This document shows positions 17,678-49,688 of a stretch of 64,000 nt of DNA, piece after piece (the first letter of the stretch is position 1; every line of letters starts with the position of its first letter). The DNA comes from Chloroflexota bacterium (lineage in GTDB: Bacteria > Chloroflexota > Dehalococcoidia > Lucifugimonadales > Lucifugimonadaceae). The notes under the pieces are model-generated. The model was not told where the DNA came from and did no database searches. It saw only the letters and a program-made list of their open reading frames with translations. The position numbers and the translations under genes are program-made. The stretch is from assembly GCA_013204545.1 (NCBI GenBank), contig JABMNN010000046.1:11724-75723 (forward strand), read 5' to 3'.

Positions 17678-17767
17678 TGGCGGAGGGGACAGGATTCGAA
17701 CCTGCGATGCCGTTACCGACATACTTGTTTTCAAGACAAGCGCATTCAACCGCTCTGCCACCCCTCC
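17678..17767 (-). tRNA. tRNA-Ser (anticodon UGA), encoded CCA
   Basis: Minus-strand sequence GGAGGGGTGGCAGAGCGGTTGAATGCGCTTGTCTTGAAAACAAGTATGTCGGTAACGGCATCGCAGGTTCGAATCCTGTCCCCTCCGCCA. It has a 7-bp acceptor stem, anticodon loop CTTGAAA, a long variable arm, and a GGTTCGAATCC T-arm. Confidence 0.9.
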
Positions 17768-43957: not shown

Positions 43958-44732
43958 CGGAGTGCTCCGTTCATACGGAATGTGACTACTAAATTATGTA
44001 AAGTTTCGACCGTTGCCATGATTGCTTTTGCAATCGATCAATGGACGACCGTCAAGAATTCTAACTCTCACCATGTAAAACGGCTGTAAATTCAGTGCGA
44101 GGAGTTAGTGAGGGGTATTACCGATTCTCAACAAAGCCCTCGATCTGAATATCAAAGATCTTTATATCTGATCAACATCAAGTCAACATAACGGAGTTAC
44201 TATGGCTGCGGTCTGATTAGACGATTCCAATGCGGGGCCGAACTAACAAAATACGGAGTATCAGTGAATGACAATTCCCGGAATGTCTGTAACAGCTATT
44301 CTGTTGATAACTACCACCCCGTTTTTTTGTCTAGGGATTGGAGTTCTGAAGCGCAGGAAGTATTTGGTGTTAGTCCACTGGTCTCAGAGTAGACTACCTC
44401 GACTTGCTGAATCCCACCCGCTCTCAATCGAGTCACTTGGGCTGGCACGGCATACGAATCGATCCCCTGGCTTTACTAGCAATTCACCAATTCGATTCGA
44501 CGGATGCTTTCTGCCTAGCTTGATAGTGTCTGGACCAAATGAACGCCTTATGCAAGCACAAACCCGTCCCGAGTGGCAAGCGTTAGTAGCCTTGCCGGAT
44601 ACTTGGGCTTCCCGAATGTTCGTAACTTTTTTTTGGTGGACTGGGTCTAGTAGGCGGAATCGTCTTGACAATCTTCGCGATTTATTTCGGTTACAGCATG
44701 GAAGTGTGAACATGCTGGAACTCTCTAATTGC

Positions 44733-46046
44733 CTACTCCGCTAGCTTCACTAGCGAGTAGTTTTTGCGACCTCGCCTGATAACGAGGAGACGATCTTCGA
44801 CGAGATCATCGACACCGACCGAACGACCTGCGTCGACTATCTGCTCACCGTTGAGGTACATGCCGCCCTGTTCGATGGTGCGTCGTACGTCGCCACCTGA
44901 TTTTCCTGCTCCGGCCGAAACAGCGAGATCCACGAATCGAATGCCTTCGCCGGATAGCTGATCTCGATTTACATCGGTAACCGAAGAACCTTCGAGCACG
45001 TCTTCCAGTTCGTCAGCAGATAGTCCGGATATATCGCCACCAAAGAACGCACGAGTCACTTTCAAAGCCTGATCGAGTCCGCCATGACCGTGAATCGTTC
45101 GCGTTACTTCTTCGGCAAGTGCTTGCTGAGCTTCACGCTTCTGTGGCTCGATGCTCACAGCTTCCGCCAAGCCACCCACCTGAACCTGATTCAGCATAGT
45201 GAACAGCTTCACGTAAGGCACTGCGTCAGCGTCTGCAACGTTCAAAAAGAATTGATACAGCTTGTAAGGTGATGTTTGCTTGGGATCGAGCGTTGGCGCA
45301 CCACCAATCGACTTCCCGAACTTCTCTCCAGTCGAGCTACTCACCAAGGGGTAAGCGATTCCATGGGCCCGTGGCCGACCTTCGGAGTCGGCTCCATGAA
45401 TCCTTCGAATCAAGTCGACGCCACCCAGAATGTTGCCCCACTGGTCGCTACCGCCGGCCTGAAAGCCAACATGGTCTTGCTCGTAGAGCGTCAGAAAATC
45501 ATATGCCTGAAGCAACTGGTAGCTGAACTCTGTGAACGATATTCCGCTGTCTCGATCGAATCGACCTTTTACGGACTCGCGCCCCATCATCGAATTAACA
45601 GTGAAGTGTTTACCAACATCTCTTAGGAACGGAAGCAATTCTGTTGTTCGAAGCCAGTCGGCGTTGTTGACCATACGCGCTGGATTGGATTTTGCTTTGA
45701 AATCCAAAAACGGTTCGAGTTGCAGGCGAATTGCTTCGACGTTATCGTCGATTTCAGCGATCGACATTAACGTTCGCTCATCAGCGCGACCCGAAGGATC
45801 ACCGATCATGCCTGTACCGCCGCCGACAAGCGCTACGGGTGTGTGACCGTAACGTTGAAGTCGAACAAGTCCCATAACCGGAACCAGATTGCCAATATGA
45901 AGACTGCTCGCCGTAGGGTCGAAACCGTTGTAGCAAGTGACTTTTTCAGTGGCGAGTGTGTGAGTTGCACCAGGGGTGGCGTCGAAGAGTGCACCTCTCC
46001 ATTCGAGGTCTTCAGCTACGTTTTGAAATTCAGTGTCGGTAGTCAT
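44733..46046 (-). CDS. tyrS: Tyrosyl-tRNA synthetase
   Basis: 437-aa ORF with the HIGH-type motif SLHIGNL, the KMSKS-type motif KFGKS, and a C-terminal S4-like domain. Confidence 0.95.
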   Translation of the reverse strand: MTTDTEFQNVAEDLEWRGALFDATPGATHTLATEKVTCYNGFDPTASSLHIGNLVPVMGLVRLQRYGHTPVALVGGGTGMIGDPSGRADERTLMSIAEIDDNVEAIRLQLEPFLDFKAKSNPARMVNNADWLRTTELLPFLRDVGKHFTVNSMMGRESVKGRFDRDSGISFTEFSYQLLQAYDFLTLYEQDHVGFQAGGSDQWGNILGGVDLIRRIHGADSEGRPRAHGIAYPLVSSSTGEKFGKSIGGAPTLDPKQTSPYKLYQFFLNVADADAVPYVKLFTMLNQVQVGGLAEAVSIEPQKREAQQALAEEVTRTIHGHGGLDQALKVTRAFFGGDISGLSADELEDVLEGSSVTDVNRDQLSGEGIRFVDLAVSAGAGKSGGDVRRTIEQGGMYLNGEQIVDAGRSVGVDDLVEDRLLVIRRGRKNYSLVKLAE

Positions 46047-46103: not shown

Positions 46104-47030
46104 TTAGTTGATTGCCAGAATTTGGCGGGTTTGCTCGACGTCTTTATTCATTTGCTCGATTAGTTGTTCCACAGATTCGAATGCGACCTCTGGCCTGAGT
46201 CGTTTCACGAACTCTAGGCGAAGCCGCTTTGTATACAGATCACCGTCAAAGTCTAGGAGGAACGCTTCGATAGTACGACCCCCATCGGTTTCGAAAGTTG
46301 GTCGTACGCCGATGCTGGTCGCCGCATTATGAGCGATGCCGTCTACGTCGACTAGGGTTGCGTAAATCCCATTTTTAGGAACAGTTGATGAAAAATCAGG
46401 CTCGATGTTTGCAGTTGGAAAGCCCAATTCGCGCCCACGTTTTTCACCATTTGCTACAACCCCCGAAATTGAGTAGTTTCGCCCCAGCATTTTGGCGGCA
46501 GTGTCGCAATCACCCGCGGTAATCGCATTGCGAATTGCAGAGCTGGAAACAGCTTGCTCATCAACAACAGCGGCTGGAACACTGATGAAATCGATGCCGC
46601 TGAGTTCATCAGTGTTCGAAAGCTGTTCTACATTTGATCGGTCTGATCCAATCATTGCCCCCGGTCCTAGAACTAAGGCGTTCAGCCCTACGTGGTCGCG
46701 TAGAGCATTGATGAATTCGACAGACGACAACTGCTGAATAGTCGTTCCAAACTCAAGTTCGACAATTCTGTCGATCCCGGATCCACGGAGGATACTTCTG
46801 CGCTCTTCGAAACCGCTTAGGTATGAAACTTGTGAGCCTGGTTTGATGAACGCACGCGGCTGCTCTTTGAACACAAAAACTACCGATTTCGCACCGCGAG
46901 CAGACGCTTCGTCCTGCACCCGCCGCAGTAGCGACTGGTGGCCAAGATGAACACCATCAAACGTGCCGACGGTGGCGACCGTCGGGCCAGTCATGGCATC
47001 TATTGAAGCGAACAGATCGGTTATCGACAT
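46104..47030 (-). CDS. ribF: Bifunctional riboflavin kinase / FAD synthetase
   Basis: 308-aa ORF with GTFDGVHLGHQSL, GFPTANI and a C-terminal riboflavin kinase domain. Confidence 0.9.
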   Translation of the reverse strand: MSITDLFASIDAMTGPTVATVGTFDGVHLGHQSLLRRVQDEASARGAKSVVFVFKEQPRAFIKPGSQVSYLSGFEERRSILRGSGIDRIVELEFGTTIQQLSSVEFINALRDHVGLNALVLGPGAMIGSDRSNVEQLSNTDELSGIDFISVPAAVVDEQAVSSSAIRNAITAGDCDTAAKMLGRNYSISGVVANGEKRGRELGFPTANIEPDFSSTVPKNGIYATLVDVDGIAHNAATSIGVRPTFETDGGRTIEAFLLDFDGDLYTKRLRLEFVKRLRPEVAFESVEQLIEQMNKDVEQTRQILAIN

Positions 47031-47087: not shown

Positions 47088-48125
47088 CTAGCTCAGGGTT
47101 GCGTGCGCCTCGCGGAGTAATACTTCGGTGGTCTCCCAGTTGATGCATGCATCGGTGATGGAGACACCGTACTTCAAATTGGCGGGATCGCCCAGTGACT
47201 GGTTCCCCTCGTTTAGATGACTTTCCAACATCAGACCAATCACACCGTTATTACCAGCGATTCGTTGCCGGATGGCATCGCGGAATACGATGGGTTGGCG
47301 ATTGTGATCTTTATTGCTGTTCGCATGCGAGCAGTCGATAACAACGTTTGGCTTCAATCCAGCGGCTTGGAGAAGGTGGGAGGCTTTTGCCACCCATTCT
47401 TCATCGTAGTTGGGGCCTGCTGAGCCACCACGAAGGATGAGATGTTGCGCTTTGTTACCTGCCGTGTGGACCACAGAAGCTCGACCATCGAGATCGATGC
47501 CGAGAAATGCATGTGGCGACCGAGCAGCCATCATTGCGTCGACCGCGATCTGGAGACTGCCACCGGTTCCGTTTTTGTAGCCGATTGGCATTGAAAGGCC
47601 ACTCGCCATCTGGCGGTGAGTTTGGCTTTCGGTTGTTCGTGCGCCAATTGCGCCCCACGAGATCAAATCTGCGAGGTACTGCGGAGTGAACGGGTCGAGG
47701 AATTCAGTTCCTGCTGCGAGGCCGAGCCCCAACACTTCAAGCAGGAACGCCCGGGCACGTTTGAGACCGGTTTTCATATCGAATGTGCCGTCGAGGTTGG
47801 GGTCGTTGATAAGACCCTTCCAACCGACGGTGGTACGAGGTTTTTCGAAATAGACCCGCATTACAACAAGAATCTTGTCTTTTACTTCATCCGCGATGAC
47901 AGCGAGTTTCTTTGCATATTCGAGCCCTGCTTTTTCATCGTGAATCGAACATGGCCCAACAAGCATGACCATACGGTCGTCGGTTCCTTGTTCGATATTC
48001 TCTATGGCCGCACGGGCATCGAGAACGACTTTCGCTAGTTCAGGAGTAATTGGTTGTGAATCGATGAACGATCGAGGGGAGTCGAGCGGTTGTATTTCGG
48101 TAACTCGGACATTTGATGTTGACAT
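47088..48125 (-). CDS. aroG: 3-deoxy-7-phosphoheptulonate (DAHP) synthase, class I alpha
   Basis: 345-aa ORF with GPCSIHD, MRVYFEKPRTTVGWKGLINDP, WGAIGARTTESQ and ESHLNEGNQS. Collinear with E. coli AroG/F/H from memory. Confidence 0.95.
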   Translation of the reverse strand: MSTSNVRVTEIQPLDSPRSFIDSQPITPELAKVVLDARAAIENIEQGTDDRMVMLVGPCSIHDEKAGLEYAKKLAVIADEVKDKILVVMRVYFEKPRTTVGWKGLINDPNLDGTFDMKTGLKRARAFLLEVLGLGLAAGTEFLDPFTPQYLADLISWGAIGARTTESQTHRQMASGLSMPIGYKNGTGGSLQIAVDAMMAARSPHAFLGIDLDGRASVVHTAGNKAQHLILRGGSAGPNYDEEWVAKASHLLQAAGLKPNVVIDCSHANSNKDHNRQPIVFRDAIRQRIAGNNGVIGLMLESHLNEGNQSLGDPANLKYGVSITDACINWETTEVLLREAHATLS

Positions 48126-48264
48126 GATCGGATCAGGTTTCTATTGAGCTGTTGAATGAATGAAATTACAGATGTCATGATTCATTCGGTCAGACCGGCA
48201 CAGTTGCATGCTGCGGGAGGGAGAGCTTAGTGAATCCAAGGGGCTGCGGGACGATCAGGCAGTA

Positions 48265-48417
48265 CTAGCTGCGATATGAACGTCCATACGTAAACAGCCC
48301 GCCGGTATAGCCAGCATAGAAGAAGCTATACGTGGATGAACGCGGAAAGGCGAAACCAAACGATTGTGAATCGCTTCGGCTTGAGTTTGAATTCGTCTGT
48401 AGGTTGCGCTCTGACAT
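48265..48417 (-). CDS. Candidate Phe/Tyr-rich leader peptide upstream of aroG
   Basis: The ATG lies 4 nt after the aroH stop. The 50 codons read MSERNLQTNSNSSRSDSQSFGFAFPRSSTYSFFYAGYTGGLFTYGRSYRS, with 6 Phe and 5 Tyr in the last 31 residues. The stop codon sits in the apical loop of a long stem-loop. Confidence 0.4.
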   Translation of the reverse strand: MSERNLQTNSNSSRSDSQSFGFAFPRSSTYSFFYAGYTGGLFTYGRSYRS

Positions 48418-48421
48418 ATCG

Positions 48422-48814
48422 TTATGAATTTGCCGTTGAAAGATCAGGGCGAAGTTTAGCAGCATCGTTCAAGTACGCGTGCCTGATTTCGTTCTGAGCT
48501 TTGTCAGTATTCCAGAAAATAAGTATACGTATGCATTGGGCTAATGCACCCGGTCGAGCCATCTCATGACCGCACATGAGAGGAACATCGTTCCATCCGA
48601 ATTGCTCTCGTGCAACAACGGCAGGAAATTCAGCGACAAGATCTGGACTGGTGGTGAATTGCACCGCTGCGACATCGTCTTGATCAATGCCATTCGCATC
48701 AATCAAGATCGATAGCAGCTGTGCAGTTGCCGCTAGTACGTCTTCAGCCGACGTACCGTTGGTGGTTGTCGCGCCTTTGACGCCTCGAACCTTCGTGGCC
48801 AATCTGTAACTCAT
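48422..48814 (-). CDS. aroH: Chorismate mutase, AroH type
   Basis: 130-aa ORF with VRGVKGATT, TSPDL...FPA, CIRILIFWNTD and RPDL. Collinear with B. subtilis AroH from memory. Confidence 0.85.
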   Translation of the reverse strand: MSYRLATKVRGVKGATTTNGTSAEDVLAATAQLLSILIDANGIDQDDVAAVQFTTSPDLVAEFPAVVAREQFGWNDVPLMCGHEMARPGALAQCIRILIFWNTDKAQNEIRHAYLNDAAKLRPDLSTANS

Positions 48815-48869
48815 TCTGGGTGCGGGTTAATGTTTGGCGGATCATACCTGATCCAGCAATTCAGGCGAC

Positions 48870-49688
48870 CTAGTTTGCCACGACTTTTCGAGGCGTGCCG
48901 AGTGTAAGAGACTTTATATACGTTCCTGCACGTTTCGCTGCACCGGATGCTTCACCATCGGTAAGTGTGTTGATGAGGGCACTTCCAACAATTGCTCCGT
49001 CGGCAAATTTAGCAACCTCGGCCACGTGGGCAGCGGTCGAAATCCCGAATCCGATAGCAACAGGAATGTCGGTGAATCCGCGAATCTTGTTGGCGAGGCC
49101 TTCAACTCGCGATGATACAGTTGCTCTTGCGCCGGTTACACCCAGAACCGAAACGCAGTAAATGAAACCGCCAGCGCGCGTGCACGCGTGCTCGATTGAA
49201 TGATCGGTTGATGTGAGCGCTACCAGTGGGATTAGGGACAATCCAAACCTGTCACAAGCATCATGAAGCGGCCCCGCCTCAGCGGAAGGAAGATCAGGGA
49301 CAATCAGACCATCAACGCCTACGCTCGCAACTGACTTGCAGTACTTGTCGAGCCCCATGCTAAATATGGTGTTGTAGTAGCCCATGAAAATGATCGGGAC
49401 TTTAATACCCGCGGCTCGGATCTCTTTCACTGCTTCGATGCACGTTATCGGGGTCACACCGTTTTCGAGTGCCCTGTGACCTGAAGCCTGAACAGTGGGG
49501 CCATCTCCGAGCGGATCGCTGAAAGGAACGCCCAGTTCAATAATATCGGCTCCCGCTTCAACCACTGATCGAACGATATCGGTTGTGAACGCCAGCTCTG
49601 GAAACCCGACCGTGATATATGGTATAAGAGCGATTCGGCCTTCTGCTTTTGCCTTTTCGAACGCTTCTTTAATTCTGTCAGTTGCCAT
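48870..49688 (-). CDS. trpA: Tryptophan synthase alpha chain
   Basis: 272-aa ORF with IPYITVGFP, ELGVPFSDPLGDGP, and GFGIS near the C-terminus. Confidence 0.95.
   Translation of the reverse strand: MATDRIKEAFEKAKAEGRIALIPYITVGFPELAFTTDIVRSVVEAGADIIELGVPFSDPLGDGPTVQASGHRALENGVTPITCIEAVKEIRAAGIKVPIIFMGYYNTIFSMGLDKYCKSVASVGVDGLIVPDLPSAEAGPLHDACDRFGLSLIPLVALTSTDHSIEHACTRAGGFIYCVSVLGVTGARATVSSRVEGLANKIRGFTDIPVAIGFGISTAAHVAEVAKFADGAIVGSALINTLTDGEASGAAKRAGTYIKSLTLGTPRKVVAN

Follow-up and report, generated by a model that had tools for sequence, protein, structure and literature searches.

The 64,000-nucleotide (nt) stretch analysed here, hereafter the window, belongs to contig JABMNN010000046.1 of a Chloroflexota bacterium (Dehalococcoidia; assembly GCA_013204545.1) and carries on its minus strand the gene order trpA, aroH, leader open reading frame (ORF), aroG, ribF, tyrS. 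The leader ORF, 50 codons long, occupies the spacer between aroH, encoding chorismate mutase, and aroG, encoding 3-deoxy-D-arabino-heptulosonate 7-phosphate (DAHP) synthase. It is probably a cis-regulatory Tyr/Phe leader that would sense charged tRNA through ribosome stalling within the operon trpA-aroH-leader-aroG-ribF-tyrS. A first-pass annotation, made from the letters of the window alone, had put the ORF forward as a candidate aromatic-amino-acid leader. This proposal is supported by the conservation of the ORF among related genomes, by anchored aromatic codons, by a covarying hairpin that overlaps its end, by classical leaders in other lineages and by the precedent of the aroR leader. Comparative evidence supports the sensor half of an attenuator well; translation of the leader in the SAR202 group, stalling upon it, the direction of the response and any involvement of Rho are presumed from it. 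Most likely, the element is an operon-internal Tyr/Phe leader, long, structured and devoid of a terminator, and as such a known kind of control in an unusual form.

A conserved reading frame rich in Tyr and Phe codons

The features on which the argument rests are the following.

48265..48417, minus strand: leader ORF, 50 codons plus TAG, translation MSERNLQTNSNSSRSDSQSFGFAFPRSSTYSFFYAGYTGGLFTYGRSYRS
48274..48360, minus strand: aromatic-codon zone, codons 20-48, with 6 Phe and 5 Tyr
48126..48421, minus strand: aroH-aroG spacer, 296 nt

The leader ATG (48415..48417) lies 4 nt past the TAA stop codon of aroH, and the TAG stop codon (48265..48267) is followed by 139 untranslated nt before the start of aroG. 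The first-pass annotation had described an ATG 4 nt beyond the aroH stop opening a 50-codon ORF, with 6 Phe, 5 Tyr and no Trp in residues 20-48, in a 296-nt gap between co-directional genes; these particulars were exact when recounted. An in-frame upstream start, the ATG at 48465 (giving a 66-residue ORF), was rejected because the spacing to the aroH stop varies (1, 2, 4 or 5 nt), such that the frame relative to aroH differs among relatives. The frame is open through 48418..48465 (minus strand) into the 3′ end of aroH, where it corresponds to the conserved aroH C-terminus read in another frame, and this longer form (MLL[NSD]F...) is sometimes annotated by gene callers in relatives (P0004, P0016, P0023). 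Both the leader ORF and aroG begin ATG-TC(N), encoding Met-Ser (48409..48417 and 48117..48128, minus strand). In most relatives the leader start region, GACAUGUC, is a perfect palindrome, of which the CAUGUC part is common to both starts. A start-to-start helix involving GACAUGUC appears in many single-sequence minimum free energy (MFE) folds of orthologues, but is not regarded as real since the CAUG core of both start regions is self-complementary.

Searching species-representative genomes with AroG gave 23 loci arranged as aroH, spacer of approximately 300 nt, aroG, the spacers ranging from 263 to 327 nt. The full SAR202 sample comprises 35 loci, 24 from genomes and 11 on contigs reached through a peptide search; frame and composition were scored on 34 of these, L019 being left out owing to N bases. 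The aroG genes of related loci are approximately 77-92% identical, and their synonymous sites are near saturation (proportion of synonymous differences, pS, 0.67). The leader frame is nonetheless open in all 35 loci, always between aroH and aroG. Among the 23 scan loci, 20 have an ATG 1-5 nt past the aroH stop and an ORF of 42-56 codons ending at the same aligned stop, while the three most diverged retain the frame, starting at TTG or GTG a few codons in. Across the full sample, the start is ATG in 32 of 35 loci, located 1-5 nt after the aroH stop in 31 and overlapping it (ATGA) in one. ORF length varies from 40 to 73 codons with 17 different lengths, all of the indels being in-frame, and the distance from the start to the 3′ motif is divisible by three in all 28 loci that allowed the motif to be anchored. 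Stop codons interrupt the other two frames in all but 12 and 11 of the 34 scored loci.

The stop codon is TAG or TAA in the loop of a hairpin, H1, described below, and where it is mutated a TGA follows three codons later. In one subclade (L084, L088, L090, L093; P0001, P0002, P0004-P0006, P0008) the H1-loop stop is now a sense codon, CAG, but CTG in L088 and L090, and translation ends at a TGA within the conserved CUGCCUGA of the 3′ arm, giving tails of QAA, QTA or LSA. From these alignments, it appears that the stop codon can shift 9 nt inside H1 with the element retained.

The first-pass annotation had allowed that the ORF might be a chance occurrence. In keeping with this, two of the three frames are fairly stop-free in this spacer, and approximately one-fifth of random sequences of the same composition give an open 50-codon frame. 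The open frame in 35 of 35 loci, the conserved start and stop, the 17 frame-preserving lengths and the poorer openness of the other frames nonetheless refute a chance ORF in a structured spacer, which is now exceedingly improbable. Judged by these alignments, conservation is the decisive evidence that the leader ORF is not a chance occurrence.

A profile built from the leader peptides matched 26 small predicted proteins among 5.8 billion; none carries a Pfam domain, and the named ones are labelled merely “hypothetical protein”. The encoding contigs of 12 matches all place the peptide between a CM_1 gene and a DAHP_synth_1 gene, and 11 of these provided new readable loci. A precursor of a ribosomally synthesized and post-translationally modified peptide, or a domain of a larger protein, was rejected, as all 11 retrieved contigs have the same context and no modifying enzymes occur nearby.

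Phe and Tyr make up 11 of the 50 residues (22%) of the window leader, against 5.96% in the window's long ORFs, 48 in number (binomial P = 1.4e-4); the enrichment reaches P = 9e-7 over the final 31 codons. Eleven aromatics are attained by 0.7% of random open 50-codon frames of the same first-order composition, which bears out the earlier remark that the aromatic content is far above random. In the window leader alone, this enrichment is significant but not overwhelming. Across the 34 scored leader ORFs, Phe and Tyr account for 18.2% of residues (range 12.5-23.1%), with Tyr at 10.1% versus 2.2% in window proteins (4.5-fold) and Phe at 8.0% versus 3.7% (2.2-fold). The comparison of aroH-aroG spacers that the first-pass annotation had suggested finds the short ORF kept in 35 of 35 loci and its aromatic enrichment in the 34 scored, and the refuting outcome named there, relatives devoid of either, did not occur. 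Codon choice is also distinctive: all five Tyr codons of the window leader are TAT, and 73% of leader Tyr codons overall are TAT, whereas window genes use TAT for 36% and prefer TAC (64%).

Three aromatic positions are anchored when counted back from the stop or from the conserved ...RS end, with residues scored in 49 peptides and codons in 34 loci.

Position -14: aromatic in 49/49 (Tyr 48, Phe 1); TAT in 33/34
Position -9: aromatic in 47/49 (Phe 46, Tyr 1); TTT in 31/34
Position -3: aromatic in 46/49 (Tyr 42, Phe 4); TAT in 30/34

The anchor codons, TAT and TTT, are the rarer codons for Tyr and Phe. The 21 residues preceding position -14 are on average 26% aromatic, and length variation upstream of this position consists largely of Gly-Tyr (GGCTAT-type) repeats that add Tyr codons. 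Mid-ORF repeats of Gly-Tyr or Gly-Tyr-Thr-x-x-Asp are found in L093 (820-1041), L088, L090, L015 and L084, e.g. GYAPADGYTFADGYTSGDGYTGG, and the GGCTAT-like repeat segment TATAGCTATAGCTATA is itself palindromic. The repeats probably expand and contract by replication slippage, altering the number of Tyr codons between close relatives. The tandem aromatic run of classical leaders was not found, the longest run being 1 in 11 loci, 2 in 20 and 3 in 4.

Selection on the leader and RNA structure of the spacer

Substitution patterns in the leader were compared with those of aroG in the same genomes, as the ratio of the proportion of nonsynonymous differences (pN) to pS.

Leader ORF, last 15 codons: pN/pS 0.49, pS 0.315
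Leader ORF, codons 2-9: pN/pS 0.59, pS 0.488
aroG, codons 41-140: pN/pS 0.126, pS 0.665

Synonymous sites of the leader are approximately twice as conserved as those of aroG. Because pS is depressed and constraint on the amino acids is weak, selection would act mainly on the RNA and on particular codons, a pattern that appears to fit a cis-acting leader better than a functional peptide. A functional peptide, either an arrest peptide of the TnaC/SpeFL type in which GGLFTxGRSYRS would respond to a free metabolite at or near the stop, or a small protein acting in trans, is accordingly improbable. It would account for the high conservation of the C-terminal 15 residues, most positions of which are 84-100% conserved, for the synonymous third-base variation of Thr at position -8, and for a stop that is fixed relative to the motif or moved by exactly three codons (QAA, QTA or LSA); C-rich RNA also comes right after the stop, as at the tnaC Rho-utilization (rut) site. 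Against it stand the relaxed pN/pS and the conserved synonymous sites given above, and nearly all of the conserved non-aromatic codons are paired in H1, where they change together with a non-coding 3′ arm. The middle of the peptide is not conserved, its composition is of low complexity (Ser, Arg, Gly, Tyr and Thr) with no Pfam match, and its homologues are found only in the aroH-aroG context. Moreover, stalling in response to a metabolite usually switches on catabolic genes, a logic that does not suit aroG.

The RNA of the spacer contains the following elements.

48353..48382, minus strand: H0 hairpin, at approximately codons 12-22, AAGCCGAAGCGAUUCACAAUCGUUUGGUUU, predicted fold
48241..48300, minus strand: H1, three-segment hairpin, 82-93% of cells paired
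48179..48236, minus strand: H2/H3 domain, 58 nt, closed by helix H2 (GAUUC/GAAUC)
48199..48215, minus strand: H3 hairpin within the H2 domain, CGCAG-CAUGCAA-CUGUG, 94.8% paired
48126..48178, minus strand: A/U-rich, G-poor stretch, 53 nt, approximately 12% G, the aroG initiation region, devoid of a Shine-Dalgarno (SD) sequence

The 5′ arm of H1 (GGGCUG / GGACG / GCAG) is formed by the last 11 codons of the leader, G-L-F-T-Y-G-R-S-Y-R-S, and its 3′ arm (CUGC / CGUCC / CAGCCC) is non-coding and C-rich. The apical loop contains the stop codon and, in several relatives, consists of UAG or UAA alone; the first-pass annotation had placed the TAG in the apical loop of a long stem-loop, and H1 shows exactly that. 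A conserved UUU, together with variable codon -7 (Tyr in 22 of 49), lies where the outer helix gives way to the middle one, in an internal loop; the UAU at position -3 sits in the internal loop separating the middle from the apical helix. In the middle helix, both-side changes are seen in 5 of 8 pairs, including Ser-to-Pro and Ser-to-Ala codons matched in the non-coding arm. Helix H2 is 98.5% paired, with 2 pairs changed on both sides, and the domain that it closes holds a C-rich strand, hairpin H3 and a near-invariant CCGGUCUGACCGAAU. The second pair of H3 occurs as AU, GU, UA or GC, with 7 sequences changed on both sides, and the unpaired positions of this 58-nt element (GCAAC, CCGGUCUGACCGAAU) hardly vary. 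Outside the leader context, neither the window nor unrelated loci contain the domain. Further upstream, a hairpin of the shape of H0 is predicted at the same site in 17 of 18 orthologues with differing sequences (z-scores -4.3 to +0.5). The residues encoded over H0 are not conserved, but the predicted hairpin is.

Over the whole spacer the RNAalifold consensus was weak (-4.55 kcal/mol), the variable hairpins being misaligned by MAFFT; for this reason the structure was drawn manually and its pairs were then counted as a test. The H1+H2+H3 model was assessed on a 27-sequence alignment against slid partners and 500 shuffles. It pairs 89.6% of cells, versus 29-38% with the partners slid, and includes 12 pairs changed on both sides versus 4.8±1.3 in shuffles, none of the 500 reaching 12. 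Hairpins H1 and H3 and helix H2 are well supported by this covariation across the alignment. A closing helix ACCGGC/GCCGGU, suggested by single-sequence MFE folding, was rejected as variation in its 5′ partner is uncompensated by eye. The G-L-F codons of the most diverged clade (GGGCUGUUU in L017; GGGUUG.UU in L019) are complementary to a segment approximately 100 nt downstream (AAACAGCCC and AAGCAACCC), with two changes that appear compensatory; L016 lacks this pairing. In the L017/L019 clade, the H1 5′ arm may have this distant segment as an alternative partner.

The strength of this covariation raises the question of whether the structured RNA, comprising H0, H1 and especially H2/H3, is itself the main regulator, as a protein or ligand site or as an element of processing or stability. 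The ORF would then be a mere passenger whose translation, e.g. by keeping ribosomes coupled to RNA polymerase across the spacer, involves no amino-acid sensing. The near-invariance of unpaired nucleotides in the 58-nt domain, set against saturated synonymous sites in aroG, the constraint on synonymous sites of the leader, and the failure of attempts to model a ribosome-dependent switch all speak for this explanation. It leaves unexplained the 4.5-fold Tyr and 2.2-fold Phe enrichment, the interchange of Phe with Tyr, the bias to TAT and TTT, the Gly-Tyr expansions, the start 1-5 nt past the aroH stop and the frame-preserving indels. The occurrence of classical Tyr/Phe leaders at the same junction elsewhere also favours codon sensing, and no Rfam family matches the element. 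An RNA regulator with a passenger ORF is thus unlikely, although less so than a functional peptide.

Proposed mechanism and the search for an output step

In the favoured reading of the element as a Tyr/Phe leader, ribosomes finishing aroH, or starting de novo, would initiate at the ATG 4 nt past the aroH stop and read approximately 50 codons; since this start abuts the aroH stop, translational coupling is suggested. The Tyr and Phe codons of the second half, wobble-read TAT and TTT, would be met within the 5′ arm of H1 and shortly ahead of it. As the last 11 codons constitute this arm and the stop lies in its loop, the progress of the ribosome would dictate the folding of H1. The position of the leading ribosome, set by the supply of charged tRNA-Tyr and tRNA-Phe, would thereby determine if H1 can form, and if its C-rich 3′ arm is left unpaired, and the state of H1 would set the transcription or expression that reaches aroG-ribF-tyrS. 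Scarcity of Tyr or Phe would then raise DAHP synthase and tyrosyl-tRNA synthetase.

How the state of H1 might be converted into an output was sought among known regulatory elements and folds. No Rfam family matched 47900..48700 at E <= 10 or five related loci at E <= 1, the amino-acid leaders of Rfam (Phe_leader, Trp_leader, His_leader, Leu_leader, Thr_leader) gave no match at this locus, and the T-box covariance model gave none at E <= 10 in 47900..48700. A simple scan of 47900..48900 found no sigma-70-like promoter. Such a promoter within the H2/H3 block was also rejected, there being no scan match and the -35-like and -10-like hexamers being, by eye, the variable parts of the block. T-rich stretches were discounted as a terminator tract since they lie 10-15 nt after H2 with no adjacent stem. 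For sequestration of the aroG ribosome-binding site (RBS), no conserved helix over the aroG start region was found. Pairing of the H3 loop CAUG with the aroG CAUGUC was rejected because it is lost when the loop varies, and GGUUUC/GAAACC and GUUU/AAAC pairings at the aroG start were rejected as short and not conserved. An SD is absent from aroG, UAGAAAC being conserved 13-20 nt ahead of its ATG. The two caveats of the first-pass annotation, no canonical terminator and no strong SD for the leader, both hold. Even a loose SD-like motif precedes just 17 of 49 long ORFs of the window, and an SD-less aroG start is normal here.

In the absence of an intrinsic terminator and of an RBS-sequestering helix, Rho-type termination is favoured as the output. 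The 90 nt after the leader stop average 37% C and 21% G over 34 loci, which corresponds to the 95th percentile of C-G skew in the window, and much of this C-rich RNA is paired in H1, H2 and H3. By analogy with known Rho-dependent leaders, the best guess is that factor-dependent (Rho-type) termination would occur in the C-rich, G-poor 139 nt, gated by H1 and H2/H3.

Several observations weigh against the Tyr/Phe leader as drawn here. Its aromatic codons are spread over approximately 30 codons, unlike the runs of 6-8 seen in classical leaders. Conservation is likewise high (84-96%) for C-terminal residues that are not aromatic (G, L, T, G, R, S), and the Thr codon at -8 keeps AC with its third base free to vary, which hints at some constraint on the peptide or on the loop sequence. 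An intrinsic terminator, i.e. a hairpin with a T tract, is absent from 47900..48900 and, by eye, from 34 aligned orthologues, while canonical terminators do exist at some gene ends of the same window. No conserved, mutually exclusive “2:3” helix competing with H1 was found. In the sole candidate for an alternative helix (2:4), CGCAG and GACCG of the H1 3′ arm would pair with the 3′ arm of H3 together with CGGUC; 80% of cells are pairable, yet covariation is lacking (226 of 500 shuffles are as good) and the helix is kinetically awkward. Partition-function folding constrained by a ribosome footprint at several positions left the accessibility of the aroG start unchanged (0.50 vs 0.49-0.50) and hardly altered H3 (0.60 vs 0.53). 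Lastly, a simple Rho model has the wrong sign unless the sensing stall is upstream of H1. The sign of the response would work only if H1 were kept folded by upstream stalls or if H2/H3 played a further role.

The near-invariant unpaired nucleotides of H2/H3 would also allow for a further input, from either a protein or a ligand. On two features that could be tested, the tandem codon run and the intrinsic terminator, the element departs from the classical leader-terminator family. It is conceivable, though we consider it doubtful, that the architecture is a distinct one: a long leader coupled to the upstream gene, with wobble-read Tyr and Phe sensor codons in the internal loops of a stop-looped hairpin, no terminator, and H2/H3 as a possible second sensor or Rho gate.

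Related leaders, genomic context and implications

Textbook Tyr/Phe leaders with perfect terminators, e.g. MIENYFTYYYYF, precede aroG in other uncultured lineages. In L031, a Dehalococcoidia metagenome-assembled genome (MAG) whose AroG is 55% identical, such an attenuator lies between an aroH-like gene and aroG. Its leader ORF, MIENYFTYYYYFKKKGRIIAFR, is located at approximately 2847-2915 (the same contig as L094, 1347-1415). Directly behind the aromatic run, an AAAGGGC segment is able to pair with GCCCUUU, part of a perfect terminator, CCCUUUCA-UAAC-UGAAAGGG-U7, which is followed by an SD (GGAG) and the aroG ATG. One metagenome scan with the L031-type AroG yielded three relatives of the same design (L095, L096, L097), with the leader approximately 150 nt upstream of aroG at 1501. 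Leader ORFs of the L031 type read MIENYFTYYYYFKKKGRIIAFR, MIQNYFTYYYYFKKRRANCRV, MKQNYFTYYYYFMKEGACSRV and (L)RQRKFTYYFYYGNEWVNLHL; behind each come a perfect hairpin with U7-9 and an SD, and none matches Rfam. The same aroH-leader-aroG junction was confirmed for L031, and in L094-L097 the leader is just upstream of aroG. At least two more unrelated designs emerged from the scan, each with a strong hairpin and U8-9 before the SD. One, MKQFIYTYYYFRR or MKKFFYTYYYFRL, is found on four AT-rich marine contigs, L118, L137 and L147 (approximately 145-152 nt upstream of aroG at 1501) and L133 (approximately 149 nt); the other, MYPTIRVSTSFYFYFWAYDPGGKRCA, is on a GC-rich contig, L109, approximately 167 nt upstream of aroG at approximately 603. 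Aromatic runs in the classical leaders of other lineages include ...FYFYFW.... A possible aromatic leader, (L)IIFYTFYFF, also occurs upstream of a type I DAHP synthase in L108, with no strong terminator there.

From the presence of classical Tyr/Phe leaders at the same junction, it can be argued that codon sensing is the ancestral logic. These leaders share with the SAR202 element the regulated gene and the enrichment in Tyr and Phe. They are, however, 13-26 codons long, with runs such as YFTYYYYF, a GC hairpin with U7-9 and an SD, none of which is found in the SAR202 element.

Leader-peptide attenuation is textbook in Proteobacteria and documented in Actinobacteria. Neshat and co-workers reportedly described, in 2014, the aroR leader peptide of Corynebacterium glutamicum upstream of the aroF (DAHP synthase) operon. 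Judged by likeness, the SAR202 leader appears functionally most like this aroR-aroF leader and the classical Tyr/Phe leaders found here. According to one account, the aroR leader (Phe-Tyr-Phe) raises transcription of aroF under Phe limitation, and the synthetase operon pheST of Escherichia coli is under leader control of the same type (PMC11802643). Both aroR and the SAR202 leader are short ORFs with Phe and Tyr codons ahead of a DAHP synthase gene, and in this account it is stalling on aroR that raises operon transcription. The Phe-Tyr-Phe codons of aroR form a compact cluster, and the element is classed there as an attenuator of transcription. The SAR202 leader differs in its 40-73 codons, dispersed aromatics, lack of an intrinsic terminator and start adjoining the stop of the upstream gene; it has an extra conserved RNA domain, also precedes tyrS and bears no sequence relationship to aroR.

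With E. coli pheL (pheA), pheM (pheST) and the trp, his, leu and thr leaders it has in common an ORF of cognate codons that overlaps the 5′ arm of a hairpin, and leader control of the pheST synthetase operon parallels the presence of tyrS in the SAR202 operon. Against these leaders, it has no Rfam leader match, no 1:2/2:3/3:4 scheme and no terminator, and its ORF is much longer.

Leader-ORF attenuators dependent on Rho include Salmonella mgtL/mgtA and E. coli tnaC and speFL. These resemble the SAR202 locus in having a leader ORF followed by C-rich, G-poor untranslated RNA with no intrinsic terminator. In mgtL, tnaC and speFL, the position or stalling of the ribosome governs access to the C-rich RNA, whereas no rut-masking helix was found in SAR202. 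Moreover, tnaC and speFL sense free metabolites via the nascent peptide, which the SAR202 substitution pattern does not favour.

In Firmicutes and some Chloroflexi, tyrS and aro genes are typically governed by T-box riboswitches. A T-box would give the same input, the charging of tRNA-Tyr, and the same targets, but the SAR202 locus has a conserved ORF instead of the specifier-loop and T-box architecture. In Actinobacteria, the cys leaders and the LEU element are predicted leader ORFs with sequestor and antisequestor hairpins, and are similar in placing regulatory codons near the stop without a classical terminator (PMC1262725). These elements sequester an SD, whereas the SAR202 aroG has no SD and no conserved helix over its start.

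The genes of the locus in the window are as follows.

48870..49688, minus strand: trpA
48422..48814, minus strand: aroH, AroH-type chorismate mutase (Pfam PF07736, E = 4.9e-40)
47088..48125, minus strand: aroG, type I DAHP synthase, the presumed regulated gene (Pfam PF00793, E = 7.2e-86)
46104..47030, minus strand: ribF, downstream of aroG (by Pfam domains)
44733..46046, minus strand: tyrS, downstream of ribF (by Pfam domains)

The window derives from a Dehalococcoidia genome of the SAR202 type, and the closest aroG loci are those of marine Chloroflexota MAGs and Candidatus Lucifugimonas marina JH545. The 775 nt downstream of tyrS (43958..44732) hold no convincing gene, just overlapping ORFs on both strands, one of them at 44268..44744 (plus strand), and gave no Rfam match at the gathering threshold. 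The sole Rfam match in the window is an 87-nt tRNA (17681..17767, minus strand, 60.8 bits), whose length would suit a class II tRNA of the Leu, Ser or Tyr type. Across the window, sigma-70-like promoter matches are depleted (7-13 vs approximately 17-18 in shuffles) and terminator-like matches are at background level. The few canonical terminators at gene ends include those after 1970 (plus strand), below 13572 (minus strand) and below 51514 (minus strand).

No description of leader-peptide attenuation was found in the literature for SAR202 or other Chloroflexota, and annotation pipelines miss the leader ORF or call it a hypothetical protein. The element is carried by a cultured SAR202 member, Ca. 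Lucifugimonas marina JH545 (locus L004; PMC10444878). The classical aroG leaders in several uncultured lineages suggest that such control of DAHP synthase is wider than the lone experimental case, C. glutamicum. Should the SAR202 element be a Tyr/Phe leader as proposed, it would tie the charging of tRNA-Tyr and tRNA-Phe to tyrS and to entry into the shikimate pathway in a globally abundant marine clade. As a sensor with neither a terminator nor an RBS-sequestering helix, it would present a case for how leader-ORF sensing is coupled to output where SD sequences are few, and a new conserved RNA domain, H2/H3, may be involved. Should its architecture prove to be distinct, it would represent dual-input control, without a terminator, over both DAHP synthase and tyrosyl-tRNA synthetase in a bacterial group that ranks among the most abundant of the deep ocean.

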